Shown piece by piece: positions 31,467-57,559 of a DNA stretch of 64,000 nt (its first letter is position 1; every line of letters starts with the position of its first letter). Location of the stretch: positions 54,870,001 through 54,934,000 of the forward strand of contig OX597819.1 of the NCBI GenBank assembly GCA_951406725.2, given 5' to 3'. The notes under the pieces were generated by a model, which worked only from the letters and a program-made list of their open reading frames with translations, was not told where the DNA came from and made no database searches. A program made the translations under genes and the position numbers. The DNA comes from Octopus vulgaris (lineage: Eukaryota).

Positions 31467-32310
31467 ATGTCAGAAAACGGATTAAACGGACACAGGAATA
31501 ACTTGACGAGCCTTCAGTGGAAAGTTGGATTTATTAATTCAGAGCAGAAATACTTAACAGCTGAGACATTCGGTCATAAGATAAATGCTTCTGGAACGGG
31601 TTTAAAGAAAAGACAAGCATGGACATTGGAGCAAGACCCGAAAGAGGAGGTAGTCTACATTCGGAGCCACTTAGGTCGATACCTGTCTTCAGATAGATAT
31701 GGAAATATTACCGGAGAGTGCGAAGAGCCAGGCCGTTCGGAAAAGTTTTCTATTGAATATAATGATAAGGGCCAGTGGGCAATTAAGAACGTAGAACATG
31801 GTTGTTATGTGGGAGGAATCGATAACAATGTTATTGGACATAACAAGCCGCCCACATCCACAGAATGGTGGACCTTACAATTAGCAATTCATCCACAAGT
31901 TAACCTTAAAAACGTAAATAGGAAAGTTTATGCCCGTCTAGCAGCCGAGGAGGGCGAAATTCAATTTACCGAGGTGATTCCATGGGGCCAAGATTGTTTG
32001 ATCATTTTGAAATTTGTCGAGGGCAAATATGCACTGGTCACTTGTGATAATCGGTATTTACACCGTGATGGCCATCTGGTCGAGGAGTTGTCTCCAGAAA
32101 CTTTATTTACAATTGAGCTCAAGTCGGGTCAAATCTCTGGTCTAGCTCTGAAAGATGTTGACGGTTGCTACTTAACCGCTGTCGGACACACTGCCGTAAT
32201 GAAGGCACGTAACAGAGCCATCACAAAAGACGAACTATTTACTATCGAAGACAGCCATCCACAAGTCACCTTTACTTCCCATACTGGCAGAATTGTATCA
32301 ATTAAGCAAG
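31467..32310 (+). CDS. FSCN: Fascin (singed) actin-bundling protein, first coding exon (beta-trefoils 1, 2 and start of 3)
   Basis: Fascin motifs KYLTAETFGHKINAS..LKKRQAWTLE, SHLGRYLS, LAIHPQVNL, IPWGQD, TKDELFTIEDSHPQV. Donor CAAG|GTAAGC at 32310/32311, phase 1 after 281 codons. Confidence 0.97.
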
Positions 32311-33623
32311 GTAAGCCCGTAACTTCCCAATCCTTCCAATATCCATTCACATAGAGAAACGTATCTATAAAATTTCATAAATTAATAAATATTAGCATTT
32401 TACCTATGAATGAATCGGTGTTGAATTAATAGGAAATCATTTAATGTTACTATTTTTATAAGGGGAATATCAAGCTCATTCATTCAATTGTTCGTTTGCT
32501 TCCGCAATCATTTTAGCATCTTCTCTTTCCAACATAGTTGGGATTCCTCCTAATCTCGCTATTATGAAATTGTTCTCTAAATTTTACTCCTGTAACTTGA
32601 AATGTAAACGACCTGCCATTTCAACAGCATTTCGATTTATTATTGCATGTTTCACCTTTTTAAAATTAAACTAGAATGATGTTATCGAAGAAGAGGAAAC
32701 TCTTGAACCTTCGCATCTTCTAGGGGATTTTCATGTTAATTTCCTCCTTTCCCATTTTTTGTGCAGGGTATTAACCGGCTAATTTTATTCATGCTACATT
32801 TTCTCTACAATGTACATATTTCATGTACTGATCTGAAATAAAACAGTAGAGTCGGGGTATCTTATCCGAATTTTTAATTTCGTTTTTAATTTTTTTTTAG
32901 TGTCAATTTTTACCTTTCATTTTATTTCAAGGAAATGACACATTCAAAACATTAATTCTTTATATAGTTTTTTTGCTTTTTTTTTTCTAAATTATTACTA
33001 TATCTTGTATTTTTTTTTTTCTTGTTTAAGTCACAATGATTCAGCATGACTGTTTTATCAGTAAATCCTATGTGTAAATGAGGGAGAGTTCAGACTGCTG
33101 TGTGGTAGCGGTGGCAGAGGTTATGGTAGACCGTTGTCAGTCGCTATCATCATCATTTATAATGCTGCCCTAGACCTTGCAAGTTACTACTACACACAAT
33201 TTCTACGACTGCTTCTCCGCTAGAAATCTTTCAACCTTTCTCTGTTTCCCTTCCTTTTTCAATTTCCATTTTTCTCTTTTCTTTTCCATTTTTTCTCTCT
33301 TTTTCTTTATATCTCCCTCTTTTTACCCTCCTTTTCTTCCTCGTTGTCTTTAATAAGTGATAAAAATGACATGTTTTTAACATAAATTTGAGCTGTTTCA
33401 TCGTTATCGACATCTTATTGTTCTTATCAAACCTCCCCTTACATACATACATACTAACCTCGTGTCTTTTAGCTCATTAGTTGAAATCGAAAACGCGAAG
33501 GTTCTTTAGAGCTGCTGAAACATGGTAGTTCTGACAGCACACATGTTCAATGCATGGACGTTATTCAGTCACCGCATTAATTATTGTCATTAACCAATTA
33601 CACTTGTCAATATGTTCAAATTC

Positions 33624-33666
<43 letters not shown>

Positions 33667-33828
33667 TAAGCCTTATCTTTCGGAGAAAAATGTGCTTTTA
33701 CCTTAGTAGAAAAATTAACCCCCCACCCCCAACCGGCATCTTTCCGCTATCTTACTACCTTTTCCTATTTATCTTTATCTTATCTCTTATCTATCTCCCT
33801 CACTCACCTCTCTCTTTTTCTTTAGGTG

Positions 33829-33860
<32 letters not shown>

Positions 33861-34939
33861 CATGTGTATGTGTGTCTCTTTCTCTCTCTAAATATATGTG
33901 TGTGTTTGTGTGTATATATATGTGTATATGGATGTATGCATGTGTGAGTGTGTATATCTGTTGTGTGGGTGCGGTAAACCGGCTTTACATATCCAGACGT
34001 TTCTGACCATCGATCAGATGATCAATACGACTACATACCTTCGCTTGAAAATTTGTCGATTTTTACCTATAAGTAAAAATCATTATTATAGTATCATTTA
34101 AAACATAAAGAAATGCATGAATGTCACGTAATCTTATTGCTCAGTCAGTCTACTGTAACTCTAAAATATTTTCCTTGTGTAAATCTTTTTAATAACAAGA
34201 CGACGTCACCTGCTTCGCCGGTGTTGTTAAATTTTCATGTTTTACAATATCTTAGAATAAATGTTTTATTTTTAATTGCAGTCTTATGATAATATTTATT
34301 ATAAAATCAAACCCCTTGAGAATTCATGGAATAGATGCAGATTTATACAAAATATATATTTTTGAATAAATCACTAGATCTATTGTTGATTAAAGTGCCT
34401 TTGTTTTATTAATTAACATATACAATACTTTCGGCTTTTTAATTAAAGATCACGGGACTTATTTAATAATTAAATTAGTTGCAATATCAGGAAGATATTA
34501 ATATCAATACTTATATTTATATGGTTAATGAAATGAGGTTGGACAGAGATATTCCTCTTTCATTCTGCATGATTTTGATTGCAGAACAAGAACTGATGCC
34601 ATTCTTTACCAAAGCTATAGTTGTCCGCTACTAAATCGCCACCACTATTTCCCATTAATTTGTAATATGCCGATTCACGAATTAAGTGTCACTTTCTATC
34701 TTCAGTTAAGCGATTTTACTTCCTTTTCGCCTTTAATACATTTGCGAAAAGGAATGAATGACAAAGTTACATTTTTGTTGTTCGTTGCTTTTACAGAATC
34801 TATTTTTATCTCTATCCATACACATTTTTCTTGTTCTGTTCACCAATAAGAACCAAATCCGAACGTGCCAACAAGAGAGCTCGTCTCTAAATTCTCGTTC
34901 AAACCATAATCTGCTTTAAAGAAGATACACTGCCTAAAA

Positions 34940-35730
34940 GAAAGAAAAAACAGGATGATCACAATTGGAACATCTTTGATCATTTGTCTGCTCGTTCAGA
35001 AGTTGACCTAGACACTTTATGTTAAACGAACCAGTTACCAAACTCTCTATTTGGTCGCACAAACCTGCTAAAAGTAGAAATAAAATTATACCTATATAAG
35101 GATAAAATTGAAAGAAAAAAAAATAAAAGGTGGGGGCGAGTGAGTCATGGCTGGAACTTGATTTGATCGTAGGTACTTTCTATCAGCAACAATACCTGCT
35201 AAATTTTATTTCATTAGTCATTCACGACCTACCTACTTTACATGTCAAACCAAATTTTCTATTGTTGCTTTGTTGCTTCTCGGAAAAACCTGTTTGAGAC
35301 CAACAAGATAGTTATTACATGGTTGTTCGGCTTGCAAGAAAAAAAAATTAAAATCTCCCGAGCAGGCCTTCAACCGTCTTTAAAAGTGAAGGATACATTG
35401 GACAATGCAGTTGTAGATATACAAAGAAATGATTGAATGGTCACCGTCGGAACGTTTTATATCATAGGTTTGCTGAATCAGAGCTGACCTGGGGCTAAAT
35501 AATAACCTGTGTAAAAGAAAGAGACAAGCCGGTATGTGATCACTTGACCTGTTAGAAATGGCAGCCAAATGTCAAAAGTATGACGAACAACACCACCTTT
35601 TAAAAGCAAAATGGGAAGGGTATTAAACGATCTAGTCCTTGATAAATCACCGAATAAAATACCTGATTGTTGGAATAGGTTTTTTTTATGGGTTTTCTCG
35701 ATTATGATTGATCTGTGGCTAAACAAACAA
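34940..35730 (+). repeat. Cluster of about four degraded ~200-bp copies of an old repeat
   Basis: Recurring GGCTGGAA..TTTGATCATAGG..ATCAGAGCTGACCTGGGGCTAAA-like block, also at 20360-20560, 42200-42270 and 59020-59110 (-). Confidence 0.5.
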
Positions 35731-37972
35731 CCTGTATTGTTTTTATTGTCTTTAAAGTTATTGCAATAAGTATTTTTTGTTTAGAAATCCTCTTGGAAAT
35801 TCTTTAATGGTCTTTTTTTCCATTTTGACATTTTTTTGTCACACTAACCTTGGCGTATCTTAATTTGGCATTTTATTATTTTATTTTTTATCCTTGGTTT
35901 TAAGTCAGAACGACCGACCCTTCTCTTGACTTTTCTGGGTTTTAAAGACCAGAAAAGAGAGGGGGAGCTCTTTCTTGCTTTGTCATATTTCCCCTTATGA
36001 AGGAAGTTCTCAGCTACATTATAATATCGAGTCCCCCACCTCTTCCTCATTTTCCCCGCCCTTCCCCCCATTCGCATCACATGTCCGACTACCCTACCCC
36101 CTACTCCTACCCTTTCTCCTCTTCCCGGTCTCATATTTTGAGTCTAGGTCGGTATGACATGACATTATTTCATTTCAGATACGACTTCCCTTCAATAGAT
36201 ATTGTACTCTTCAAATCGAAATGGAATCTATAGTAGTGTATGTGAATGTGTGAGGGCGGGAGGGAGGTATTGTTAGGTGGAGATTCGGGGATATTCAATA
36301 ATGTGACGCCAAGTTCTGAGTTGTTCCTTCTGAGAATTTATATCCTTTTATTTTGGAGTGTCTCAAAGATTTAGTCTTTTTTTTTTTTTTACTTCTGTCA
36401 ATACCATCATGATGATGTCTTCTCCTCACTTATTGTTACAAAAAAAAAAAAAAAGTAAAGAAAAATTCCTTTGACCAGGCTCTTTCTCTTTATACTGGAT
36501 ACGAAGTTCTATGTTCAAAAGCGATTTTACTGAGGATGGTGGGGGTCCCGAAAAAGAAATTTTCTTTCTTTCATAAAGTTTGAAGAGCACCATCAGTTAC
36601 AACCATATGTAAGTGTACATAGAGAAGTTGTTACATATACACTTTTTTTTTCATCTCTGAACATATACTACGTACAGGCGACTGACATAATTCTTGCTCA
36701 ACCATTACGTTATATGGGAGGGGATAGAGACTGGAGAATGCTGTCGATCTATTCAGCAGACATATCTTTATAGTATTTTTTGCTTTTGGTTCCTTTAAGT
36801 AGATTTTATGTGACACTTATGTTTCTCTGATGGGGAATTTGACTCGGATATGTAGTTTTGAAATTATATCCTCCAGCTCAAATTACCTACGTTGAAGATA
36901 ATCTCTTTTCTCTCAAATGATTCTTAAAATTTCCGTTATAAATTTATTCAAGTTTATTTCTTTTTCATGGCTGGTGAGTGAATTTCGTTGTCTAAAACTG
37001 AATGATGCCTGTCCTATGTGTACATATGTGTGTATTTAAATATATGTACGTACGTGTGGTGTGTGTGTTTATGCCTCCTTGTCTTGACATCGTGCGTTAG
37101 TTAGTTGTAATATGAGTATCACCTTAATACTAAACATTTTCCTTTTCTTTCCAATCTTCGGTGAAAATATGCCTGCCCGTGGGGAAACATCACTTTACTT
37201 GAAAACGGGTGAGGGTTAGCAACAGGAAAAGCATTCATTTGTAGAAAATCTGCCCCAACGATCTCTGACTGACCCAGGCACGCGTGGAAAAGTAGATGTT
37301 AAATGGCGATTTGCTTGTTTTAAATAATTTTAATAATTTCACAGCTTTATGCACAACACACCTTTTTCGATCTGTTGCATAAATTAACATTAGGAGGAAA
37401 CGTACAGCTGACTCAATTCTGTATGTCAATTTATGCTCTAAAGTTACTTTGATTTTAATTTTCGTTTTTGACTCAGACCCAAGTGTTTTTATTTTGGAGA
37501 GGTAGATCACCGGATGGATAGCAGATACATTTTATTGGGTGGAGAAAGTTTAAGCTAAATGTGTTTCTGTGTTAAAAGATGGCAAATGTCATCAAACATC
37601 CTGATAATTCCTCAGTTGGATTCATGTCAAAAAAAATGACCACTTCCAAATGTCAGTAAGATCTCATACCAAAATGAACTGAAGACTGCAAAGCAAATGG
37701 AACTTAATAGAACCTGTCTTTAGATTGATTTTTTTTGTTTTTTTTTTGTTTGAAGCTGGCAGAATAAATATGAATAAAGATATAGACATGCTTGTATGAT
37801 TCAGGAATTTTGTTTTGCAATCATGCAGTTCTTGTTTGATCTCACTGTTTGGCAGGTAACCAATACTGTCTGAATGGAATTTGGTTAGAGGATGTGTGCG
37901 TGTGTAAGGCTGTATGTATATATGTATATATATACATATATCTGTGTATATATACATATATATATGTGTATG

Positions 37973-38003
<31 letters not shown>

Positions 38004-38519
38004 ACATGTGCTGGTGTAGCTGTTTGTATGTATATGTGTGTGTGTAAAATATATATATATATATATATCAAGAGAGAGAGATATACAGGTGTTGTGTGAT
38101 AAGAAGCTTGCTTTCTAACCACATAGTCTGAGGTTCAGTCCCGCTGCATGGCACCATAGGCGAGTGTCTTCTACTATAACCTTGAATTGACCAAAGTCTT
38201 GTGAGTGGATTTGGTAGATAGAAACTAAAAGAAGCCTGTCGTATATGTGTGTCTTTGGATTTGTCCCCCACTACTGCTTGATAATTGGTGTTTGTCACTG
38301 TAACCTAGCGCTTTGGCAAAAGAGACTGATAGAATGACAGCCAGGCTTCAAAAAAGAAATAAGTACTGGGGTTGATTCTTTTGACTAAAAATTCTTCATG
38401 TCCGTAGTGTAAAGACATACAAGTGAAATATAAATCGTTGCTATTATGCAAAATGTCGTAAGCCCAAAATGTTGTTTTTTCAGAAAACAAAAAAATAGTT
38501 TCACCATTCCATAGCAAAA

Positions 38520-38750
38520 CAGCGACAAGCTAGCAGAACCGTTAGCACACCAGGCAAAATGCTTAGCGGTATTTTGTCTAGCGTTACATTCTGAGTTCAA
38601 ATTCTGCTGAGGTCGACTTTGCCTTTCATTCTTTTGGGGTCAATAAATTAAGTACCAGTTACGCACTGGGGTCAATGTAATCGACTTAATCCCTTTGTCC
38701 TTGTTTGTCCCCTCTGTTTTTAGCCCCTTGTGGGCAATAAAGAAATAAAA
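38520..38750 (+). mobile_element. SINE family B, CpG-decayed
   Basis: Family B sequence with many CG>TG/CA changes. Confidence 0.85.
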
Positions 38751-38936
38751 ACTGTTGTACTACACTTTGACAATTTTTGATATCTTGGCATCTGAAGCAG
38801 CTGGAGATAGGATAATTTGACCAAAAGAACCAGCTAATGCAAGCAAGAATAAATATTGAAAAAAACGCATTTGACCAAATTTGGACATACGACAGTTTAA
38901 CATAACAATGTGTGTGTGTGTAGAAATTTTTTTAAT

Positions 38937-39121
38937 TTAGTTCCATAACCACCAAAATTACCTGATGGTTTCATAAATAATTAGTCCTCCTTACAATGGG
39001 ATAACAATTAGATACTCATTAGCCATATCTGATGAAATGAGTATCTTAATTGCTCTTCCTTTGTAAAGAGGATTAAATATTTATGAAACCATCCAGTTGT
39101 TTTGGCAGTTATTGAGCCAAT
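38937..39121. repeat. Imperfect ~185-bp fold-back (old MITE-like)
   Basis: GATGGTTTCATAAATA..GATACTCATT versus AATGAGTATC..TATTTATGAAACCATC, with a ~15-nt loop. Confidence 0.8.
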
Positions 39122-41189
39122 AATACACCCACTCTAGGTGAAATAAACATCAAAGGAGCTAATCAGTTATTGCAAGCTCTTCTTCTGAATTCATCAAAGT
39201 GTGTGCGCGTGCACGCACACACACACACACACACAGATCTCTATTGGTTTTGTCAGGGAGGATTCAGGTGTCTGATCAATTGAGCGTGCTCAATAGATTA
39301 GCATGTGATTGATTGAGTATTCCACAGTCATGAATTCCCTTAAGGTAATTCTTGGACAGAATCAGCATGACACTGTGTGTGACAATCCTGTAATTCAAAA
39401 AAGAGGTGTGTTTGTAGGTCTGTGTGTGTATTTGAAGGGTCTTGCAGGTTACTTGGTGACCTCACTGCTGCTGGTGCTACATAAAAACAAAAAACATTTA
39501 GTTCATTCTGTAAAGGTGTTGGCATTAGGAAGGGTAATTAGCTGTAGAAATTATGCCAGACCAGGTACTAGACCATGGTGCAGTCTTTGACTTGCTAGCT
39601 CCTGTCAAAATGTCCAACCCATGTCAACATGGAAAGCAGTTCATAAATGATGATGATAATTCTTGTCCGTGCCTCTGTTTACAACTGTTTATGAACCTGC
39701 CTAGTGCTTTGACAAATAGAGATTGATAAAATAGGTGCTGAGGTCAATATGATAGAGTAAACCCTTGACAGAAGTCCAATGACTGAAGCTAATATAAAAA
39801 ATAGAAATAGTGGAACAATTCTTTTTCTTGCAAATGTTTTTTTTTCCTGCAGGTTTGAAAGCAATGTAAAATGGTTTTTCTTGTTCCTTCTCAATCTAAG
39901 ATCTGTTAGAGGAATTTTAAAATTAAAATAATAAGTTTCTCTTTGTTTTTCTTTACAAGCGTTTCTGTCATTTTATACTAATGACTAACAAATACTTGCC
40001 CAGTTCTTGGGTTCACAAACAGAAACACTTAGAAAAAATCTTAACTATTAATATACAACTACTTTCTGACAGGAAGTATCTAATACTGCTAATTCTTAGA
40101 GGTTTTCTAAGCTTACATAACTTGGTTATCTCAGATTATCACTGAATCATGCAGTAACATGTAATAATGACATGTATTGTTATAACAACATTCTTGGTCA
40201 TTTTACTTTTACTTCTCATGTTTTAACTATGCTATTGTTGCCATTTCATAGTAGAATGGTTCTTACAACACTGGGAGAATATATAACATCAGATTAAAAG
40301 CATTTAAAATTAGACTTTTTACTTTTCTGTCTGGTTGTACATCCATACTATTTTTGCAAGTCAATGAGAATGCCTTGATATTATAGCTCTAGTTGCTAGA
40401 AATAGCAGTTAACCTTCTTTTAAATCACACTGCTTTAAAAGGGAAGGCTATGTTAAATAATGCCAATTTTAGATTGGCAGTAAATGGGCAAATTCAATAG
40501 TTTGACAGAATGCCTCATGGTTTTCTTGGCACTTTGCATTCCATGTTTATTCTTACTATTATTTTAACATTAGTAATATATAATTACAATAATGCTAATA
40601 GCCTATACATTTTCTTTATTTATAACCACTGAAAGACAAAAAATTGAAACAATTTGAAGTTTTTTCTCAGAATCATTTTCCTATTGTGCTACCATCCTTA
40701 AAACTTCTGTATTTGTTAGATGAATCCATCATCCCTCTACTCACAATCAAAGCTTTAGGCCATCAATGGTACTCAAATTATGAATATTCAGATTTTACAA
40801 ATATTGAATTTGATTTTTACATAATTCCTTTTAAAGAACTAAATGATGGATCACTCTGCCTTATAGAAATAGCTCATCATTCAATTATTCCAATAAAAAA
40901 CAAATGCTTGAATGATTATCTCCATCTGCTGACATAATACACTCTTAAACTGTTTTCTCTTTGGAAGTTAACCCTTTTGTTACCATATTCGCTTTGAAAT
41001 ACTTGGCCTTTGTTCCAGTTAATTTTTAAAATAATAAATATAATAAAATAACAACCTATGCCAGCATGGACAACAAACGTTAAATGATAATAGTGATCAT
41101 TATTATACTTTTTTGGGGGACACAAATTAACATGAAATTTTAATGAAGGAATTCGATTTAGATTACTTTAAAACAAGATGTTAGTACTG

Positions 41190-41355
41190 ATGTAGGAGTG
41201 GCTGTGTGGTAAGTAGCTTGCTTACCAACCACATGGTTCTGGATTCGGTCCCACTGCGTGACACCTTGGGCAAGTGTCTTCTACTAAACCCTCGGGCTGA
41301 CCAAAGCCTTGTGAGTGGATTTGGTAGATGGAAACTGAAAGAAGCATGTCATATA

Positions 41356-41387
<32 letters not shown>

Positions 41388-41398
41388 TGCAGCACGAA

Positions 41399-41468
<70 letters not shown>

Positions 41469-41675
41469 CTGTGTTTGTCCCCTCTCCCAACATTGCTTGA
41501 CAACCGATGCTGGTGTGTTTACATCCCCATAACTTCACGGTTCGGCAAAAGAGACCAATAGAATAAGTACTAGGCTTCCAAAGAATAAGTCCTGGGGTCA
41601 ATTTGCTCAACTAAAAGGTGGTGCTCCAGCATGGCCACAGTCAAATGACTGAAACAAATAAAATAAAAGCAAAAG
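41190..41675 (+). mobile_element. SINE family A inside an older TTAA-bounded MITE (~40968-41726)
   Basis: Full-length SINE; flanks match the 41832-42035 family. Confidence 0.85.
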
Positions 41676-41831
41676 GAATAGTAGAACCTGGGCCAGTCTG
41701 AAGCAGGTTGGTATCAAAGCAGTTAAAGTAGATGCAGGACTAAATTAAATTTATACTCTAATCAACCAGGATTGTTCTATGGCCAATGTTCTGAAATCCA
41801 CTTGGGTGGTAGACTTAATCTGTCATCCACT

Positions 41832-42035
41832 TTAACTCTTTCGTTAATATTTCTGTTGAAATATGGTGCTTTTGTTTCAAATAATTTTGAAAAGAAGAAT
41901 TGAGTAAGATGATTTTGTCATTATTAGGCTAGTGTTTGGAACATAAATCAACATCAAATTTTATGGGGAAATTTTAAATTTAGATTACTGTAAAAGGGCA
42001 AGTTTATATTGTTGAACCAAGGGTGAAAGGATTAA
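41832..42035. mobile_element. piggyBac-like MITE, degraded
   Basis: TTAA-CTCTTTC...GAAAGGA-TTAA; related copies near 48960-49200 and 59150-59360. Confidence 0.5.
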
Positions 42036-42481
42036 CTTCACCATCTGACATCTTTAGTAGCATCCACCCTATTGCAAGCATTCAGGTCAGATCTCTGGTT
42101 TAAGAATATCTCCTTCTCTTTCACCAATCTGTACAGTGTCATGGACTCTGCTTGTCTTTCTAAAAATAAAAATAAGTAAAACTTAGATACACAAAAAGAC
42201 AGGGTTGTTAAGGCTGGAATTTCTTTGATCATAACTCTGTTTAATCAAGGCTGACCTGTGGGTTAATCAATGACTATTTTCGTAACAGTCCTCATGGTTT
42301 AGAAATAGTTCCAGAAACTGATGTGTTAATAGGTTAATTGTTAAAGGGTGCCTGTGATCAGAATGATAAAGAAGCTAAGAGGGGCTTCCATGTTATTGAT
42401 GATGGAAAGTCTATACTTCATTCATTTAGTTATTGCCAGTATGTGATTATATGTGAGAGAGAGAGAGAGAGAGTGTGTGTA

Positions 42482-42520
<39 letters not shown>

Positions 42521-42524
<4 letters not shown>

Positions 42525-42820
42525 ATTTTACAAGATTAGTTACGTATATTTATTATTGTAGTCATCTTTAACCTGATGAGTGGCTATATTTATATTGAAG
42601 TGATTTTACTACTACTAATATTTTTACTATAATCACTTCTTAAATATAGCCACGAAACATGTGTCATTATTCTACCAAATATATACATTTTATTTATTAT
42701 TTTGCACATTACTTAATCATTGTTATGTTTTATCTTATATTTAATCTTTCTATATGTAATTTTCTAGTTGCTGTAATTTAATTTTTCATTATTGAATTGA
42801 TAAAAAGTGGTTTTTCTCTA

Positions 42821-42823
<3 letters not shown>
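42521..42823 (+). mobile_element. ~300-bp hammerhead-bearing element inserted in (TA)n
   Basis: Flanked by (TA)n on both sides; contains the 42569-42669 HHR. Confidence 0.65.
42569..42669 (+). ncRNA. Type I hammerhead ribozyme motif with extended stem II
   Basis: CTGATGA(42573-79); perfect 13-bp GTGGCTATATTTA/TAAATATAGCCAC plus 9-bp GAAGTGATT/AATCACTTC; GAAAC(42654-58)-ATGT-GTC(42663-65); stem I TAAC/ATTA with one C-A mismatch. Confidence 0.8.
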
Positions 42824-42866
<43 letters not shown>

Positions 42867-43160
42867 ACACACACAAATGTGTGCATATGTATGTATGTAT
42901 ACTCACACACACCCATTGCCATCTAATGTCTATTGTCCTATGCTTGCATGGGTTGGTGGAATTCACTGATTTTCTTTGGTTGGATGGCCTTCCTGTTACC
43001 AACTCTCACCTGTTTTTCAAGTAGGGTAATATGTCTTCTTGGCCAAACAGATATTTCATGGAAACAATCAATATTGCTTGTATGACTGTGCCGATCATTT
43101 ATAATCATCACATGACATCAACACAAGGGTACACACGCACTTACACACGCACTCTCATAC

Positions 43161-43260
43161 TCACTCTCACACACTCGCTCACTCTCACACACTCGCTCAC
43201 TCTCACACACTCGCTCACTCTCACACACTCACTCACTCTCACACACTCGCTCGCTCTCAC
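43161..43260. repeat. 18-bp minisatellite (TCACTCTCACACACTCGC), ~5.5 copies
   Basis: Read directly; gives the LTLTHS repeat in a spurious ORF. Confidence 0.85.
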
Positions 43261-43965
43261 ATACACAACGGACTTCTGTCAGTTTCTGTCTGCCAATTTC
43301 ACTCACAACTTTTGGTTGACCCGGGGACTATAATAGAAAATACTTGCCTGAGGTGCCTTGCATTGAAACTGAACCTGAAGCTACATGGTTGCAAAACAAG
43401 CTTCTTAATTATTCAGTTTGTGTCTGCAACTATGTGTTGTATAAATGGATTATATAAATTCTTAGATGAAATATAAAAAAAAAATATTGAATATTTATTT
43501 AGTCTGTGATGCATAAATTAGAAATGGCGTAATGCCAATGAGTCAGCTCTGAGATTTCACCACTGAAATCATTCTTCGAGTCTGCTTGGATAAAGGCCTG
43601 CTAGTTGTCTCTGACTATTGCAATGGTTCTGATATTTATTGATTTACTATTTTACTTTGATGATGATTACATAGGTGCAATTCCACATACTGTGGGTACC
43701 TTTGTTTATACAACTACTAATTAACTTGTCTGTACTAAAGACCATTTGCTAAACTTTAAAGCATTATATTTCTACCCTTTAATTCGTTATAATTTTAATC
43801 TACCCTTTATCTGTTTGACTAATGAACTTATAGGAGGCGATAAACTAATTTCGCAAATCCCAACAGTGAGATAAAATGTAGAAGAGGAATAAATGATATT
43901 TTCATATTTGTAGTATCAAATTTAATTCATAACCATTTAATTCTTTTGTATATCGCATAAAATAT

Positions 43966-44168
43966 GCTCTTTTACTTGTTTCAGTCATTTGACTGCGGCC
44001 ATGCTGGAGCACCGCCTTTATAGTCGAGCAAATCGACTCCCACAGCATATTCTTTGTAAGCCTAGTACTTATTCTATTGGTCTCTTTTGCCAAACCGCTA
44101 AGTTACGGGGACGTAAACACACCAGCATCGGTTGGCAAGCGATGTTGGTGGGACAAACACAGACAATC

Positions 44169-44202
<34 letters not shown>

Positions 44203-44383
44203 TTATATATACATATATACGATGGGCTTCGTTCAGTTTCCGTCTACCAGATCCCCTCACAAGGCTTTGGTCGGCCCGAGGCTATAGCAGAAGACACTTG
44301 CCCAAAGTGCCACGCAGTGGGGCTGAACCCAGAACCATGTGGTTGGTAAGCAAGCTACTTACCACATAGCTACTACTAAGCCT
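43966..44383 (-). mobile_element. SINE family A
   Basis: Full length. Confidence 0.9.
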
Positions 44384-44946
44384 ATATATATATATATATA
44401 GTTCCAGAGTTGTAAGTTTGATTTTTTTTAATGCTGGGTTAACTGCTAGCCATATAGTGTTTAAACCAACCAAGTCTGGCCCAAATATTGTTTTATATTC
44501 AGGCTCACTAGATCTAGCCTCTCACATCTGCCTGACAATGTCATTCCATAGATGAATAAACACGTCATTGAAATTTCAAAGCAATGAGATTAATGCATTA
44601 TGCATTCAAAAGAATCTGAATAAATAAGCATTACATTTGACAATAATCTGAAAGCTAAATGATTAAAAGTCATGCAGAACTTTATATAATTTTCTCAGTC
44701 CTTTTTAATGAAATGCAGTTATTCCAGTATATGAATCATTAATGTATAATTATTACATGAATATGGATGACATTTACTGATAGTGATTTGGTCTGAAACT
44801 GTTGAAACTAAAACAATTATAGCATAGAAGACATAGGCCATTCAAAAGCACACAGACAAAATTTCCTCATACCAACTGCAACCTGGTCACTGACAATGCC
44901 ACTGTAACTAATTTGAGGTGAGGCTTTCAGTCAGTGTGTATACATA

Positions 44947-44997
<51 letters not shown>

Positions 44998-47900
44998 CTT
45001 CAGGATTATAAATGGGATTTCTTTTTCTTTTACTTGTACATGTATGAATGTACTAACTAGTTTTTTATCCTTTAGTCATCCCTGCTTCAGTAAGCTGTGC
45101 CCATCCTATCCTCATTTTTCTTTCTTCAGGCATAGTGTATAAATCCTTTCATAGTCCATGTGTCCATTTTGAAAGATGATGGGGGTGGGTGTAGTTTGAG
45201 GGTGTTTTGGCTAGTATTTCTAGCAGGCTGAGTGACTGAATGGGGATACTCTCTCATTGGTTCATGCTTAAATAGCATTTTGAGAAGAGACCAAAGCTTA
45301 TTGCTAATGTGATTTAAAAAAAAAAAAAAAATTGATTTCTTTCTGTGCAAATATGAATGATGACCTCATCAGTCAGAAGTACATAACGAAATGAAGTCTC
45401 CTTCATCATTTAAATATCTTTTATTCCTTATAAGGGCAACCAGTACAAAAGAGGTTTTAGACTAAGAAACAAATTTCTCATATTTTGAATTAGAATTTTC
45501 TTTTCTTTTGACTTGTGTTGCTTGACATCCTCAATATTTAGAATTAGCTAAGATTGATGTGATGGTCATAAAGATGGTATATAATGTAAATATTAGATGG
45601 CTTTTGAAAGCAAAATAATGAGCAAACACTAAAATGAAAGTATGAATTTCTAGATTTAATCAGAATAAATTTAGTACCCCCACCCTCCACCCCACTCACA
45701 ATAAAAGAAGCTGAATGGATGATGACAATTCATTCATCATCTTTTATTATATTTCTTTTATTATATGATGAATGCTAACACTGAGATTGAAATTGTGGAG
45801 TACCTGATATTGTTAAAAAATTGTTTTTAATTTTGTGATTGGATGATCACTAGCCAATTACATGCTGGAAGCTACCAAATTAATAACCACAATAGACAGG
45901 ATCCAAACCAACTGATATATATATATGAGAGACAGAGAGGTGGAAGACAAGACTGAAGTTTATATTTGTTATAGACAAGTTTTCAGTTTGTCTTTGGAAA
46001 TTGATGTCTTTAGTCATTGAACAATTTGTTTGCTGGCATACTCAAAACTTCAGGATTTTAGAGCATTATTGTTTCGCCCCAAGTCAACCTTGGTCAAGAA
46101 GACTTATGATGAAAGGCATTTCAACCATGACCATATCAACTCTGGTATCAAAAATGTAAGGAACCCTGAACTATATTGTGCTATGTCCTTTACATCTGCT
46201 TTTCTCTGCTGGTATGGATTGGATAGGTCATCTTGGTTCAAGTGAGCTCTTACTTAGAATTACTCCCTTCCCTTTCAACAGGTCAGGGATCATGTCTTAC
46301 CTGTTCATTTTTGTCTTGGCTTCTACAACTGGATGCTCTTCCTATCACCAATCACTTTACAGAAAGTGGGTACATTTTATTGTGGCACCAGTAAGATTAG
46401 AGTTCTCTCTACTCTGGCTGGGTACCAGTGTCAGAGAATGCCTCCTGTCACTCCCAACTGACTAAAGAAAGCCTTTTGTTCCCTGTTTTGTCTCCATTCA
46501 TTAATTTCTTCTTTTCCAATTCGACTGTATGGGGAGAACGCTAAAATAAGAGAATAGAGTGAAAAAAACAGAACTAGAGTGACAGAAACAAGAGGTTAAT
46601 AGGTGGGAGAGACTGATTGATATTTTTGTTTTATTTTACATGACAGTTTGTGAACAGCCTCATTGGTTACAGGTTTCCTATGGGTCAGTCACTGGTCCCT
46701 GCATGTTGGACAGTGAAGAAGAGAAAGGAATGTCTGCAATTCAGTGTAGACCAAGTATCTGAAGGGACTTCATTATTAAATCACCATCTTTTAAAATTTT
46801 CTCCATGATCAGCAACAGAAAGATGCATACACATGTACATGGCCATGCATGCATATATATCATGCAAATGGCACCTGTAGTGCATAAAAGCACCCATTAC
46901 ACTCTTGAGTAGTTGGCATTAGGAAAGGCATCCATCTGTAGAAAACCATGTCAAATCAGACTGGGTGCAGCATGCCAGCCTGGTCAAACTATCCAACCCA
47001 TGCCAGCATGGACAACGGATATTAAATGATGATATATATAATGTCCATATTCACAATGTCATTCCATAATCTTTCAAATTCCATACTGTGTGCTATGGTA
47101 GATGATACTTACCTAAGGCTCTGAGCACAGGTATTGAAGTGGACCGCTTAATCGTACAACCAAGCCCGCAACCCTATATTTTAACATTATTATTCATAGC
47201 ATTCTATGGTATCTGAGAATTTAATTTCATTGAATATTTGTTCTGAGATGGCTGCAAAACTCTGTTTTTAAAAATGCTAGCAAAAGGGACACGAGTATCA
47301 GAGCACAACTGGGTTTAGGGTTTCCGTGTCGGCTTGCATCTTTCTGTTGACATTCCCTTCTTTCAGGTATCTGGTTTTTATACAAGTATGTAGTAATGTT
47401 AATTTGAAAAGAAAGCAGTTTCCTTTAAATAAACTGAAGAGTATTAAATGCTTCTTCCTTCTAGAGAGTAAAGCAGATTCTTTTCTTTCCCTTAATTGAA
47501 TGGTTAACAGTTGTAAAGGATGTGAGCTGTATGAAAATAAAAGTTCTAAATTGAAATTTGATTCTATGCAATCTTGAGAGAGAAAGGAAAACAAGATAAA
47601 AAAGGATGAAAAGATTGTAGAACAAGGGTTGGAGTGAAAATTAAGCTCTGTATTTATAAAGTAGTTTTTTTTAAGATCATTTCTTTTGATGTCAAATGAA
47701 AGGGTTGTTGTTACTATCATCATCATAATTTTTTTCAAGTCACTATTTAGGAATTATTTTTGTTGGGTTCTAATTTTTTAATAATGTGAAGAGCAAACGT
47801 TCAAATCTCATCTCATTGACATTTTACCTTACATTTTTATGTTGGAAGCCATAGCTGCTTAAGTCTTGACTGTTGATCTAAAGTGTAGTTTGTTCATATC

Positions 47901-48254
47901 TTGACGCTAGCACTCCAGTATTTCCGACCAATATTCCTAGCTAACCCCTTGACCCAACAATCAACTCCATTGTGATACAGAAACATTTGATGGTATGATG
48001 TACTATTGAAAGCAATGGTAGTAGCATATAATGACAAACTTCAGTACTCATTTTGTTGTCATATTTCTTAAGACACACACATACTCTATCTTTGTTTCAA
48101 TTGGTTTTGAAAATAATGAGAAATTTAGTGAAATAACTTTGTCATGATGTAAGCTTTTAATTTTGATCTCCTCAAAGCAGGAAGCCTATCATCATCCTCA
48201 CCCTTAATTTATGAGTGCATAACAAGTGGTGGGCAATAAACTAAGGTCACTTGG

Positions 48255-48412
48255 GTTAGGAATGACCATGCCTCTTTTCTTTTTTTAAGAATGCTTGTTG
48301 TTCTTGTTTCATGCATGGCTGCCTCTGCGTAGTTAGGAATGACCATGCCTCTTTTCTTTTTTTAAGAATGCTTGTTGTTCTTGTTTCATGCATGGCTGCC
48401 TCTGCGTAGTTA
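48255..48412. repeat. Perfect 77-bp tandem duplication
   Basis: 48255-48331 equals 48332-48408, with GTTA microhomology. Confidence 0.92.
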
Positions 48413-49656
48413 TTTGTGTTGTTTACTTTGTAAAATAGTAAGGGGAGAGGGTTGCTAGCACATCATCCTCAACCCATGTTTTTTCCCATCCACATCTTTA
48501 CCATATGGGGCCCTAACAAAATGCAATAATAGGTATAGATGCAAATCTAATTACTTGTCTCCTTCTAAAATCAGGCATAGCTTGGCGATCGATCAGTCGA
48601 CTTACAGCACCATTCGTTGTCTTCAGTTTACTTGGTAGTGTGTGTTTTTAACTTGACAATAAGGTCAAGGTAATCTCTGATTGGCTGTATGCAAATGAGT
48701 TCATTGCTGGGGTCTGGAAATCTTGTGAGGAAAAAAAATTTTGCGGCCAGGGGCTGCACCAGGTTCCATAGTCTGTTTTGGCTATTATTTTTATAATTAA
48801 ATATTAGGAATTGCATTAAAAAAATTTAGATATTTTGTGTATTGTGAAAGTAAAACCAAATTTATTGTACATAAATTTTAACAACAAAATCTTGCATGGA
48901 CCTCAATGGAGAATCACTGCTTTAGAGTTTCCCATAATTTACAACAGCTTTGAAATCTTGTGTGTAGTGTTACAACTGTAGCTTTTTCATGGCTGTATTT
49001 TTAAAGAAATATTTTGTATGAATTCAGTTTTAAAATAACAATTTGAAGGGATTCAGTGAAATAACTTTCTTGCTATTTATCTGGTTATGTAAAATGTAAC
49101 TTAACAAAAATGATTCTAATTATGGTGGTCTTGATTTAAATAAAAAAAAAATCTCTTTAATAAAACATGAAGTTATCTCAAACAGGTTGGTATGTAAAAG
49201 ACTGATGAAATGTTTAAATGGAATATTGTTAAACTCCTTGATCTTGGAAGAGTTGTAAAGTTCATGGACATCTCCCATTTTTGGATGTAGCAAATAGGAA
49301 ATATTGTTTGTGTCTTGGGAAAGTCATTATCTCTCTTTCTATCTCTCACACACACACACACACACAGATGCTCAATTCTACTTCTTCGTTGTTAAGCAAC
49401 TGGATAAATGTCTAATGTGCTGGTTTAAACAATCATTCAGTTGTTTATTAAAGTTTTCGTTTCTGTTTGTGACCTCAGTGACTTAGCAATTTCTCCTCTC
49501 TAATGTTTGTTTAATGTGCTGGTTAAATGACTGAGTGATTATTTAACTAGCACATCAAACGAGCAGTTGATTAGTTAGTTGGTTAGATGTTTAACCAATC
49601 TAACCAATTGACTAGCAATAAAGAAGTGGAATTGAATCTGTGCATCTGTTATTACT

Positions 49657-50068
49657 GGATCTTTTCGGTTTGAATGGCAGTTTTTTCTAGCGGTGTCATA
49701 TGAAATTGTCACCCATAATTATGACCCTAGTATCGATCTATTGCATTTCAATCTATTTTAGGGTTAAGGTTAGTTAGGGTTAGGGGAAAGGCTATCTTTT
49801 TTTCTTCACAAATGTAAATAAACTCAATCTGTTTCGTAAATGAGGGACATATTCATACGGCACAGAATGTTTTTTACCTCAATAGTGTCAGTGATTGGTA
49901 GAAATTGCAGAAAAAAAAACAACAAATATCTTACAAACTATAGAATTTTCTCAATAAAGCCAAGAGAAAAAGATGTTTTATAAGCACCTTCTACCAGTAT
50001 ACGAAGTTTAAAATTTTTTAGTTACCTAGAAATTATGTTAAAAACTGCCGTTCAAACCGAAAAGATCC
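49657..50068. mobile_element. Merlin-like MITE, 412 bp
   Basis: 28-bp TIR GGATCTTTTCGGTTTGAATGGCAGTTTT (1 mismatch), exact 8-bp TSD TTATTACT; GG termini with an 8-bp TSD fit Merlin. Confidence 0.85.
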
Positions 50069-50880
50069 TTATTACTGATGTTATGACACATCAAAATTTG
50101 TTTCAACAAATATATTCACATAAAAAAAAATCTTGCAAAAGAAAAATAGGAAATATATACACTTAATTTATTCTTTTTCAGCATGTGTATATCATTGTTC
50201 ATACTTACATTGATATATATATTCTTTGTTACAGTGGTAAGAGCTGTTCCTTAAACTCATTTCACACCCTTCAAATCACTAAAGTGAAGACTTACTACTA
50301 CCACTGCTTTTTCTCCTTTTTTCTCATTCTGATGCTTCTTCTTCAATTTCTTTCTTCTTCCTCCCACTTTCTTCTAACATCGCCACCACCAGTGAGTCAT
50401 CTCAGCAGTTTAAGACTATAACTGCTGTACATCTGGTTCACCAATTTTAACTGGTGCTGCTTGTAATTGAATCAATACACCTTGCTAATCTATACACCTC
50501 TACAAAGATATTAGATATTTATTCTAAGCACCGAGTTGAGACAGAAAAGGCACAAGCTCACTGATTAGTCTCTAACCACGTCTTTTATTTGCCGGCTAAC
50601 CATGTGACTGATTACAGTACAGTGTATCTCCAGAATGTAACTGGTAATGTGGTCTGTGTAGTAACTCTACATGGTTCAGAATCTCTTTTATTTTAAAGTA
50701 TTATGCAGGTGTGACTGTTGGCACAGGCATGGGTGCGTGTAAGAAGTTTGCTTCACAACCACATAGTTCTGAGTTCAACTCCACTGCATGGCACCTTGGA
50801 CAAGTGTTTCCTAATATAGTCCTGGGGTTGACCAAGACCTTATGGATGTATTTGGTAAACAGAAACTAAAAGAAGCCCCT

Positions 50881-50914
<34 letters not shown>

Positions 50915-50935
50915 CATATATGTATATATATATAT

Positions 50936-51302
50936 CTTCTCTTTTTCTCTCCTGTCTGTCTTGATAGACAATGGGTCGCGCCAAGGGTGGGGCCTACTTT
51001 GATGATGAGCAGCGTCTGCTGTGACTGAACAGTCCAATTCTAGAGTGGCAATCCCTGGTACAGTTGCTGCACACGAACATCGATGGGTACGTGTGGGGTG
51101 TTGCTGCAGTTGTCCTCCTCCTGTCCCGCCTGTCCGACCACAGCTATGCTCTCCTTTCCTCAGCCATGGAAACGCCTTTCCTCACTGTCCGACGCCAGGC
51201 AGAGCGGTCAGCAGCTGTTACCTCCCACGTGTCCACACAGATGTTGGCAGTCCTCAGGTCGCGCTTGCACACATCCCTGTATCGTAGCTGTGGACGTCCC
51301 TT
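50936..51302 (-). mobile_element. 5'-truncated RTE-clade LINE inserted in (TA)n
   Basis: KGRPQLRYRDVCKRDL..WEVTAADRSAWR..(stop)..FVCSNCTRDCHSRIGLFSHSRRC (stop at 50994), the RTE C-terminal zinc finger. Confidence 0.9.
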
Positions 51303-51330
51303 ATATATATGAGAGAGAGAGAGAGACCAT

Positions 51331-51476
51331 GGAGTGGTTGGCATTAGGAAGGGCATCCAGCTGTAGAAAGATTGCCAGATCAGACTGGGCCTGGTGTCGC
51401 CTTCTGGCTTCCCAGACCCCAGTTGAACCATCCAACCCATGCTAGCATGGAAAGCGGATGCTAAATGATGATGATG
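51331..51476 (+). mobile_element. SINE family E 3' part ((GAT)n tail)
   Basis: GGCATTAGGAAGGGCATCCAGC..CCAACCCATGCTAGCATGGAAAG; also at 39515-39657, 46880-47033 and 59868-60230 (-). Confidence 0.75.
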
Positions 51477-51889
51477 TGTGTTACTGTGTTCTTACCCTAA
51501 CATTGTATGACGAGAATGTCACTGCCATACAAGCAATGTCCTGCATTTCCAGTCTTCCGAGATAAATCATATCATGGAGGAAATATCACCATGCTTGTAA
51601 ACAGGTGAAGGTTGGTAACAGGAAGGGCATCTGGTTGTAGAAAATCCACCTCAACAAATTCTGTTCAGCCCATGCAAGCATGGAAAAGTGGATGATGGTG
51701 GTTGATAGTTTCAGATCAGCCTGTATAAATAGTTGGAATTTTTGTTCAGTTTTACTTCATTTATTATTATTCTGTTTAAATATGTGTTTTCATGTTGGAT
51801 AATTGTAACCAGCTTACAATAGAGCAATTCTAGCCTGGATGAGCCAATAAATTTTCTTCCCATGTCTGATTTAAGTAAAGGGCAAATTG

Positions 51890-52221
51890 TATAATGTGTG
51901 AGGGAGAAGCATAGTGCGATCATGCATAATAGAAAAAGTGGGTACTGAATGCCGATGATGAGTAAAGGCTTGAAAGAGATGGAGTAAGCATGGTCTAATA
52001 GATGTGCAATGGGGAGCTGGCTGAATCATTCGCATACTCTCTCTTTTACTTGTTTCAGTCATTTGACTGTGGCCATGCTGGAGCACCGTCTTTAGTCGAG
52101 CAAATCGACCCCAGGACTTATTCTTTGTAAGCCTAGTACTTATTCTATCTCTATCTTTTGCCGAACCGCTAAGTTACGGGGACATACACACACACACACA
52201 CAACCACACATACACAGACAG

Positions 52222-52262
<41 letters not shown>

Positions 52263-52550
52263 CATACATATATACAATGGAGAAGGTATGTGATATGTAT
52301 TGAGGATGGCAGGTGAATAGAGAACTGCCAAGTGATTCAAGAATCTTGGATTACATAGCACTTGAAGAAAGAACTTGTGGAAAAGAAAGTCTTGGGGAAA
52401 ATTTGGGAAGAAGTGATCAAAGCTGATTTCAAGAGGCTGAACCCCACAAAGGGCAAACAAGTGCAACAAGTGGCAAGATGCCTTCCTGTGGAAGACTTGT
52501 TGAACCTTAGTGGACATGGAAAAGAGGCTGCAAAATGATATTGATAGTGA
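51890..52550 (+). pseudogene. Highly degraded RTE-type LINE 3' end, interrupted by a SINE A half (52037-52275)
   Basis: Remnant TCGK..WEEVIKADFKRL followed by a tail resembling the family E tail. Confidence 0.45.
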
Positions 52551-53928
52551 TTTCAAGCAGTTTTTTTAATTTTATTTTTTGTCATCCAAGCACAGACATG
52601 GTTGTGTGGTTAAGAAGCTTACTTTGCAACCACACAATTTCAAGTTCAGTCCCACTAGGTAGCACCTTGGGCCGATGCCTTCTACTAGAGGCCTTGGCTA
52701 GCCAATTCTTTGTGACTTTGTTAGATGGAAGCTTCATGGAAACCCATTATGTACACATGTATGTGTGCATGTCTTTGAGTCTGTGTTTGTCCCCCCACCA
52801 CCACTTGACAACCAGTGTTGGTTTATTTACAACCCTGTGACTTTGCAGTTAGGGTTCATCTATTTGACTAAAACCCTTCAAAGCTCCATCATGGCTACAG
52901 TCTGATGACTGAAAGAAATAAAGATAAATTTCTTCCAAATCATGGTGCATTTCCAAAAAAACATCCATCATGGTTTACTTCACATCTCCATCTATGCAGA
53001 GTGCAATCATCTGTTTATATCATCTGATATCTTTCTTCTTTTCCTTTGCCTTTTTTTTTCTTCCTTTTATTGCACAGAAGCTCATATGTTACCTAAGTTT
53101 ATGCAAAACTTATTCCTTCACAGTTGGATAATAATGACAATTTTTTCATAAAGCCACAGTAATTCTTCAACATTAACAGAGGTAATTTTGCTCCTTGAAC
53201 TTACTACACCAACCTCTTACTCATTGCTAGTTTCAATGCTAAGTATGTTACCATAACAATTGGGTATGTCATTAAACTAAAAACTTATCTAATGCTTCCA
53301 GAACCATCTAAACTGTCTAAAATTACACCTCCTGCTGTAAATTACTGATGTGTCAAATTCACTTAAATTTTGTTCCTATGTTAGCTTTCCAGGTATCTGA
53401 ATGCACACTCTCTTGTCTTTCTTCAGCAGCAGTCCTTGCTTGACATTAATCCAGCTGTACACCAAAACAATAATGTAACAAACATTGTATGTATTACATA
53501 AGTTGTGTATTGTACAGTTTGAAGGTGTATGACCTAGTGGTTAGGGTGCTGCACTCATGATCATGAGTTCATGGTTTCACTTCCTGGACTGGGTGGTACT
53601 GGCAACTGCCATGCTCAAATGCTGTTTTTTACGTGCTACCTGCACAGGAGCCAGTCCAGTGGCACTGGCAACAATCTCGCTCAAAATGCTACACAAATGG
53701 ACATAGATGTAGCATGAGGGAAGCAAGATGTCCAAGTCTGATTTAAATCTTATCCATACAGAATTGAATTCTTTATTAATGTAACATTCTGTAATTTTAG
53801 CAAAACATTCTTTTCTCTCACTCTCTCTCTCTCTCTCTCTCTTAATCTTTTTTCTTTTTCCACTGCAGTCATTTCAGTGTTCAGTTTTTCAATACTTTTA
53901 AGAGAATGAGTTTGGAAATTAACCTGCT

Positions 53929-54352
53929 TACTCTTTTACTCTTTGACTTGTTTCAGTCATTTGACTGCAGCCATGCTGGAGCACCGCCTTTAGTCGAGCA
54001 CATCGACCCCAAGACTTATTCTTTGTAAGCCTAGTACTTATTCTATCGGTCTGTTTTGAAGAACCGCTAAGTTATGGGGACGTAAACACACCAGCATCGG
54101 TTGTCAAACGATGTTGGGGGGACAGACACAGACACACAAACATTTAAGCACACACACACATATATATGTATATGTATATACATATATACGACGGGCTTCC
54201 TTCAGTTTCCGTCTACCATATCCACTGACAAGACTTTGGTTGGCCCGAGGCTATAGTAAAAGACACTTGCCCAAGGTGCCACACAGTGGGACTGAACCCG
54301 GAACCATGTGGTTGGTAAACAAACTGCTTACCACGCAGCCACTCCTGCTTCT
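53929..54352 (-). mobile_element. SINE family A
   Basis: Full length. Confidence 0.9.
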
Positions 54353-55566
54353 CTATTGATATTACTTCATTCATTAAACAAATCATTGCATTTTAGTTAT
54401 GATTGTCTTATTTGTTCTCTCCTATCTCTCTTATCTGTCTGTCTGTCTGCCTGTCATCTACATGTGTGTGTGTGTGTGTGGTCTCTCTTGCATATTTGTA
54501 TCCATATTCACTTCATGTTGAGATTAGTGAACTAATTTAACTGTGACTGCTTGACACTGAGCCAATATCTACTTTCCTCCTCCTCCTTCTCACTAATCTG
54601 CAAATTTGTTTACAAGTTTAGAAAGATAACAAAAAAAAAAAACACCTATCAAACAAAGTAACAAAAGGTAAAAAGAAAGACAGAAAAAAATGTCTTTGCT
54701 TGTACATTATTTTAACATACAAAACATATTTACTTCTCTGTTCAAACATGCAATGTGCTGGAGACTGTATCCATCATTGTGGGTGGTCACAAACACATAC
54801 ACAACCATTCAAAACCTCTACAGTCAATGCTAACCTATGTTAGTCTTAATATACTCTTTCACTATGCACAGAATATATTTATATTATAATATTAATTCCA
54901 CATATCTTATAATTTAGTATTTTCTGACATCAGTAACATAGAACATTCCAGTCTGCAACTGGAAGCGTCACTAACCAAACAAACTCAGATGGCTGCAGAA
55001 GATAAATGCCATTCTTCTCTTCTACACATTATCCCTGACAATACAGTAGCATCTTTAAACTATAGCAGCAGGCACACGTCTTCATGTGAAAGACAAATTA
55101 TGATTGTAATTCCATTAATCTCCAATCTGTTAATCTCCATATCAAAATCATGAATACAGGATTTAAATGACCAGACTTAGTTTAGATTAGCTGTTAAGCA
55201 GTTTTTATTTTTTTTTAAACATACCTCAGTTTACCTGCTGTGTGTAATCAATAGCAATTTCGCAATTGTCAGTTTTTAAAATTTTTTTACTATACCTACT
55301 GTAGTTGACTGATGCCTTATAAGAGACAATTGTTTGGTGGAAACTGTGCAGAAGCTTGTTTATGTATGTGTGAGAGAGAGTGTTTATGTTTGCTGGTGTA
55401 AAATTGGTGTTATCGCAAATTGCAGTGTAGTTGTTTGATAAATTTAGATCACTAAAAATAAGTATGAAAATGTAATAGATACTGGATTTAATAATGACTA
55501 AAATCTTTCAAAGTCATTGTTCAACATGGCTGCAGTTCAATAACTAAAACCCACTTGTAGAATATA

Positions 55567-55826
55567 AAATAAATAAATGCGCTCTTTTAAAGCCTAGTCA
55601 GGCTCATGGGCCCGGTTTCCCGGTTTCAATGGCGTATGTGTGCCCAAGCTGGATGGTATGCCGGTCCATCGCAGCGTTACTCATTTTTGTCAGCTGAGTG
55701 GACTGGAGCAATGTGAAATGAAGTGTTTTGCTCAAGAACACGACGCATCGCCTGGTCCGTGAATCGAAACCACAATCTTACGATTTGGATGCTGACACCC
55801 TAATCACTAATCCACACGCCTCCACA
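55567..55826 (-). mobile_element. SINE family D, full length
   Basis: tRNA-like head, GGTTTCGATTC B-box, (TTTA)n tail. Confidence 0.8.
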
Positions 55827-57130: not shown

Positions 57131-57559
57131 ACATTTATGATTATTGCTCTTTTATGTAATTCCCTCATATATACAGTCCTTCTGATGACTGTATAAACCT
57201 CCAAACTGTTAAGTTTCTACTTTCATCCATGAAAGCTCATGACCTAATGTTTATAGTGTTCAAGCTCATCATTTTAAGGTTGTGGGTTCAATTCCTGGAC
57301 CAGGCAGTGCATTGTGTACTTGAGCAAGATATTTCATTTTATGTTGTTCCAGTCTCCTCATCTTTAAAAAGTACCAACCAGGTGCTGGTACAGGCCCTCC
57401 ACCCTCCAGCAGTCACATCAGGATATTCCACTAAATCAAGAGGGAGGGGACCAAGAGGGTTTCTATGTCTGCTTGCAACTACATGGGTACCTGAAACAAC
57501 TACATAGACACCTTAAAGTAAAACAATTAGCAAAAGTATGTTACATCTTACCACACTGT

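Follow-up and report, generated by a model that had tools for sequence, protein, structure and literature searches.

A hammerhead motif in the fascin intron of Octopus vulgaris: a probable truncated end of a decayed Penelope-like element

Introduction

The first coding intron of the fascin gene of Octopus vulgaris contains a repeat unit with the boxes and helices of a hammerhead ribozyme. This raises the question of whether the motif cut the fascin pre-mRNA and was later weakened by mutation, as a preliminary description of the sequence had proposed, or whether its damage has other causes. We examined the window, a stretch of 64,000 nucleotides, together with the remainder of the intron and other copies of the repeat in the same genome. 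Penelope-like elements (PLEs) with hammerheads are a known kind. Very probably the unit is the truncated terminal repeat (pLTR) of a decayed, high-copy PLE, and its hammerhead is near-silent, since a second copy is predicted to be needed and pairs have been lost to CpG decay.

Results

The placement of the unit on the sense strand of fascin was confirmed: the host ORF matches Pfam PF06268, and the unit lies in the first coding intron, which is ~37.6 kb long and ends before exon 2 at window-equivalent 69,899, outside the window. The unit of ~300 bp was also found embedded in (TA)n, as described (Table 1). Its 5′ junction was compared with those of copies L011 and L020. A TA run followed the end of the family in 18 of 24 scorable copies. 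In sequencing reads labelled as four organisms, the unique left flank and the family were found in all four, with contigs breaking at the microsatellite; in the same four runs the depth-weighted letters favored C at 42660 and G at 42666, summed depths not being equivalent to copy number. A second fascin-domain match (33.8 bits) was present on another contig, at C18:64242445-64242669 (locus L034).

Table 1. Positions of the hammerhead unit, its parts, and the host gene in the window
Feature	Position	Strand	Remarks
Fascin coding exon 1 (host gene)	31467..32310	+	ORF; Pfam PF06268, E 1e-35; GT donor at 32311
Fascin first coding intron	32311..64000	+	Runs on to window-equivalent 69,898; depleted in CpG beyond about 36 kb
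5′ (TA)n	42494..42520	.	Likely target microsatellite; meets the element inside the element's own AATATAT (micro-homology)
Putative Penelope 3′ end (pLTR)	42521..42823	+	5′-truncated; Neptune-like; without the ~75-bp tail
TCATC	42562..42566	+	From the rare change T42563C; predicted to sequester the CUGAUGA box
Helix I, 5′ strand	42569..42572	+	TAAC
Catalytic box	42573..42579	+	CUGAUGA
Helix II	42580..42653	+	Arms of 13 bp and 9 bp split by a 4x1 internal loop; variable (CTA)n in the 25-nt loop
GAAA, helix III, and GUC site	42654..42665	+	A15.1-U16.1, C15.2-G16.2, tetraloop; predicted cut after 42665
Helix I, 3′ strand	42666..42669	+	GTTA in the family but ATTA in this copy, without the first pair
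Two family CpG positions outside the ribozyme	42686..42722	+	42686-87 and 42721-22, both decayed here
3′ (TA)n	42824..42857	.	

The CTGATGA (42573-42579) and GAAAC (42654-42658) boxes are both exact in the window copy, and a GTC site is present at 42663-42665, followed by A42666, all as the preliminary description had reported. These boxes fit the type I criterion (CUGANGA plus GAAA, with an NUH site). The stem II described as 22 bp has two perfect arms, an outer one of 13 bp (42580-42592/42641-42653) and an inner one of 9 bp (42597-42605/42631-42639), but it is not continuous, a 4x1 internal loop splitting the two. The perfect inner arm is peculiar to the window copy: in 86 of 87 other copies a T at 42636 makes one of its pairs G-U. 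GTAG (42558-61) and CTAC (42672-75), put forward as a possible extension of stem I, are present in the window copy but were kept in only 39 of the 87 copies; with 73% of cells paired and the pairing broken in whole subfamilies, they were rejected as a conserved helix I extension.

The 128-nt hammerhead segment folded with z=-5.5, and none of 200 shuffled sequences folded as well. CTGATGA by itself is no more frequent in the window than chance predicts (10 seen vs 9.8 expected), and the hammerhead was the sole match of a descriptor scan of the window and the rest of the fascin intron. In an Rfam search nothing reached the gathering score, and the matches that appeared at E<=10 included no hammerhead family and were rejected as microsatellite look-alikes.

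A search of the genome that carries the unit gave 2225 candidates; of these 40 were scored, and the 39 others were 85-92% identical. A 30-nt motif pattern that permits CpG-type changes only had at least 391 exact matches in the genome, and the reversed control had 0. Among 100 of the matches listed, tallied by eye, the three ribozyme CpG sites were changed in 16, 17, and 15, and the exact CpG state of the window copy was found in three. At the cut site, CA outnumbered TG by 11 to 3 in the 100 unselected matches listed (also by eye). Genome-wide, the double-decayed state of the window copy was present in nine copies, the window copy included. The TG/CA state as a subfamily mark found no support: ten such copies, again including the window copy, were scattered on a weakly resolved tree.

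As read from these copies, the family state is ACACGTGTCG with a paired helix I, G and C being in the majority at the changed sites. The earlier proposal that both defects are products of CpG decay thus held, and so did its check against the family consensus, in which stem I is paired: 68 of the 100 matches listed (by eye) were intact at all three ribozyme CpGs. The helix III palindrome is ACACGUGU in the family and ACAUGUGU in the window copy. In the family alignment 91% of cells were paired in helix I, 95% in helix II, and 100% in helix III. Covariation within the family was thin, with six double changes among 29 chosen rows, each in a single row. No published description of this family was found in the literature searched; it may be catalogued in Repbase or Dfam.

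Longer copies were followed upstream from the unit. Past a region that is AT-rich and duplicated internally, they reach the end of an ORF that has a GIY-YIG endonuclease (EN). The EN piece of the family matched Pfam GIY-YIG at the cut-off (22.6 bits). Twenty stretches were taken around EN matches, 11 of them near the family and nine from more distant relatives with long frames. The order in the longer copies was reverse transcriptase (RT), Cys-rich linker, GIY-YIG, then 1.3 to about 2.9 kb of AT-rich 3′ region, and the repeat. The 303-bp unit was found downstream of EN, at 77-88%, in L124, L126, L129, L130, and L133, and an inverted copy of it upstream in L124, L126, and L133. Direct or inverted hammerhead pLTRs surrounded the ORF in L124, L126, and L133 and, in a sister element, in L135 and L138-L141. 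RT and GIY-YIG are encoded in one ORF, which is broken in L124, L133, and L134 and intact in the sister; the RT regions of these three loci were 75-79% identical to the intact 838-aa sister ORF. The motifs DIDNYY, PMGAPDS, and YRDD, picked out by eye, are what we take to be the RT motifs. A Pfam search with the sister protein gave no RT domain match, and its atlas neighbors had HTH_animal plus GIY-YIG, which serves as a lead only. Apparent ORFs in the 3′ region of the element were rejected as its gene, being hydrophobic or low-complexity open frames. A tblastn search of the window with the sister protein found no PLE ORF elsewhere in it.

The sister PLE comprises seven loci (L135-L141) with intact RT-EN ORFs of 838-862 aa that are 96-99.6% alike, a 3′ region of ~3.3 kb, pLTRs in both direct and inverted orientation, and a hammerhead with short arms. 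In the EN matches nearest to the window family, open frames around EN did not exceed 236 aa among the top 25 and reached 432 aa in L134. Because these frames are so short, the family of the window copy looks dead or nearly so, and the sister family looks young. Across families, EN candidates numbered 16,366 genome-wide.

A Cys-rich, Zn-finger-like linker, CTCR...C...C, lies ahead of EN in L124 and L136. It points to Neptune or Nematis; the element is Neptune-like by motif, and our preference for Neptune over Nematis is an assumption. According to PMC8557442, the linker is common to both groups.

Judged by these joins, the 303-bp unit is the 5′-truncated pLTR of a decayed PLE with RT and GIY-YIG, and its motif is a real hammerhead motif at the end of that element, with cleavage as a prediction only. 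Of the two origins proposed earlier, the Penelope pLTR insertion is the one borne out, the longer copies joining the unit to the RT plus GIY-YIG ORF. A retrozyme would agree with a length of about 300 nt, with the low GC, with the two direct repeats 410 bp apart at locus L124, and with the solo monomers described in a preprint (bioRxiv 10.64898/2026.07.22.740005). We nevertheless hold this origin to be very unlikely, and for the window copy it appears largely refuted already: the 5′ ends vary continuously, the alignment reaching past the motif on its upstream side by anything from about 0 to 890 bp, and pass over into the PLE 3′ region and ORF; there is neither a tandem in the window or intron nor a fixed-length non-coding monomer; and a circle would require two cuts. 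What lies here is one end, in truncated form, of an element that bears an ORF.

With crude patterns, inverted neighbors were found in 13 of 30 unselected copies and 3′ tails in 11 of 24 scorable copies. At positions 7929-8868 of L124, as oriented, a near-full element has two direct pLTRs, 410 bp apart, at its 3′ end, and a local tandem of this kind is an arrangement from which a retrozyme could arise. In L125, L126, L128, L132, and L134, PLE pieces of different families are adjacent or nested, in line with shared (TA)n targets.

The window copy differs from the family majority at 12 of 275 positions when compared with 87 other copies, a sample biased by including the top matches to the window copy and loci chosen for the same state. 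Four of the five family CpG positions are decayed, two inside and two outside the ribozyme, and the CpG at G12 (C11.1-G12) is intact. The outside site at 42721 was TG in 18 of 30 unselected copies; the decayed state there may be inherited and not new decay. A third change, T42563C, had been missed in the preliminary description. C is present at this position in only 3 of the 87 other copies, and with it 42562-66 and the CUGAUGA box are predicted to pair in a competing hairpin. The first helix I pair of the window copy is C-A. The changes at 42563, 42660, and 42666 are each predicted to weaken the ribozyme. The penalty for the active fold was 12.3 kcal/mol, against 8.1 as the median of 25 intact copies, values that are relative only, the core not being modelled. 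The altered palindrome still paired as a dimer (-6.0 vs -10.3 kcal/mol). By these predictions the hammerhead is likely to be near-inactive in the fascin pre-mRNA, and three weakening changes would be compatible with some selection.

The CpG content of the region was then compared with the damage. CpG o/e was 0.37 in the fascin intron vs 0.92 upstream of the gene, with GpC o/e near 1 throughout; in 4-kb bins it was 0.23-0.47 from 36001 vs 0.73-1.09 upstream. The sharp step from about 0.9 to about 0.3 at ~36000, some 4 kb into the intron, is as expected of a gene whose body is methylated except at the 5′ end. In the octopus, 5mC is reported from gene bodies but not from transposons (PMC9476566), and the CpG o/e suggests that gene-body methylation is likely to be behind the CpG loss in the intron. 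In 30 copies, the first matches listed and not picked by CpG state, fewer decayed ribozyme CpGs accompanied a higher CpG o/e of the flanks (rho -0.66, p 8e-5), the median flank value being 0.875 for intact copies (n=16) vs 0.42 for decayed ones (n=14). The three ribozyme CpGs were decayed in 6, 7, and 7 of the 30 copies vs 7 of 23 at the outside site 42686, where the tally covers the 23 copies with CG, TG, or CA. Because the decay is regional and the ribozyme CpGs show no excess over the outside site, the damage of the window copy is explained without selection, weak selection being possible.

These results bear on the proposal that a monomeric ribozyme cut the fascin pre-mRNA and that weakened alleles were selected. 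Its sense orientation, intact core boxes and C11.1-G12 CpG, very stable helix II, and three weakening changes all speak for such a cutter, as does the under-representation of retrozymes in Xenopus introns reported in the preprint (bioRxiv 10.64898/2026.07.22.740005). The CpG pattern speaks against it, with two of the four decayed positions outside the ribozyme, the same CpG state in eight other copies, and a decay that follows flank CpG depletion and spares the ribozyme any excess; moreover, ACAUGUGU leaves the closure of the monomer tetraloop unchanged, and the dimer still pairs. We consider this proposal improbable.

The form of helix III also bears on this question. By conventional numbering it consists of one C-G pair and a palindromic tetraloop, and according to Cervera and De la Pena (PMC4209133), a 1-bp helix III with a palindromic loop marks the dimer-dependent type. 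The same authors report undetectable cleavage in vitro for a single minimal PLE hammerhead and low cleavage for dimers, and one of nine dimers cut in the 2026 preprint (bioRxiv 10.64898/2026.07.22.740005); most invertebrate retrozyme hammerheads cleave efficiently and some of type I do so as monomers, according to PMC7229834. Run over the window and L068, which together hold the whole fascin intron, a covariance model found just the one family copy, and the descriptor found no other hammerhead in the intron that might be a dimer partner, a search that degenerate or permuted motifs could escape. Because helix III is of the dimer type and the intron holds no partner copy, the undamaged insert is likely, by analogy, to have cut the fascin pre-mRNA little. 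The earlier view of a pre-mRNA cutter later weakened is therefore unsupported on three counts: the type of helix III, the missing partner in the intron, and a decay that is regional rather than ribozyme-specific.

The layout of the ribozyme was kept across related families despite different letters. Helix I is TAAC/GTTA in the window family vs CCAC/GTGG in the sister, and across families helix II is CTATA/TATAG vs CTGTA/TACAG. The helix III loop palindromes are CACGTG, CGATCG, and CAATTG, with CGATTG in three of the seven sister loci. Helix II is long in the window family and in L142, whereas L143 and the sister have one of 4-5 bp; the L142 RT is 90% identical to that of the sister. Judged from how the identities nest, the older state is likely to be the long arm. 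Hammerheads of other sequence with a long helix II were also seen at L142:6877-6996 (-), at L130:1139-1267 (-), and in L141/L143/L134; long arms are common in the Octopus vulgaris genome and occur in several families.

Discussion

The events leading to the present locus may be envisaged as follows. The enzymes of the element would have made a nick in a (TA)n tract and copied into the intron only the final ~300 nt of the element RNA. Two repeats of the parent RNA would pair through their palindromic helices III to give a dimeric ribozyme that processes the precursor. The fascin intron offers no second copy in cis, and little cutting would be expected even before mutation. Germ-line gene-body methylation likely turned four of the five family CpGs into TG or CA regardless of ribozyme function. 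A caveat to the near-silent reading, drawn from comparison with known ribozymes, is that the family helix II by far exceeds, in length and in stability, the 7-8 bp of the minimal hammerheads that have been tested.

The element resembles the EN+ PLEs Neptune and Nematis (Craig et al. 2021, PMC8557442, 10.1101/2021.04.23.441226). As described there, these share with it a single ORF with RT then GIY-YIG and a Cys-rich linker before EN, and also hammerhead pLTRs, 5′ truncation, an inverted upstream copy, a tail, and a (TA)n bias. Unlike them, the window family has a long AT-rich, internally duplicated 3′ region, and its tail is about 75 bp vs 30-40 bp. With the minimal PLE hammerheads (PMC4209133) it shares type I architecture, a 4-bp helix I, G10.1-C11.1, a 1-bp helix III with a palindromic loop, and mostly solitary truncated copies; helix II is 13+9 bp in the window copy vs 6-8 bp in the main text of that paper, whose supplements may hold longer arms. 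The metazoan non-LTR retrozymes (PMC7229834 and bioRxiv 10.64898/2026.07.22.740005) likewise have a type I hammerhead in a low-GC repeat of ~300 bp related to pLTRs; unlike them, the window unit has no tandem and no fixed monomer and is continuous with an RT-EN ORF.

Co-option of the copy to tune the splicing of fascin by slow cleavage, in the manner of the CPEB3 ribozyme or of the intronic hammerheads of amniotes, would suit the sense, intronic position and a distal helix more perfect than in the family. With 12 of 275 positions off the family majority, a damaged cut site, and no signs of constraint, we give it almost no credence. As the truncated end of a PLE, the window copy is one fossil among hundreds to thousands and says little about fascin. 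The family, in turn, is a natural series for the role of PLE hammerheads and for monomer cutting, spanning a helix II of 4-5 bp and of 11-22 bp, three helix III palindromes, and single and double CpG variants. Claims that intronic ribozymes were weakened by mutation are to be weighed against regional CpG decay.

A rather doubtful extension is that methylation-driven mutation passively disarms exactly those hammerhead copies that land in expressed genes, because in this animal group gene bodies are methylated and transposons are not. The three ribozyme CpGs of the family occupy load-bearing spots, namely the helix II closing pair with G12, the center of the palindrome through which dimers would pair, and the cut site together with the first pair of helix I. 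If left intact in such genes, long-armed hammerheads might cut pre-mRNA; what is observed is that decay goes with CpG-poor flanks.

Elsewhere in the window, at ~940-1320, a head-to-head inverted repeat of another family was noted, which is also present in L078. It holds CTGAAACGAAAACAATTGCAG on the minus strand, which resembles hammerhead boxes in an unusual order.
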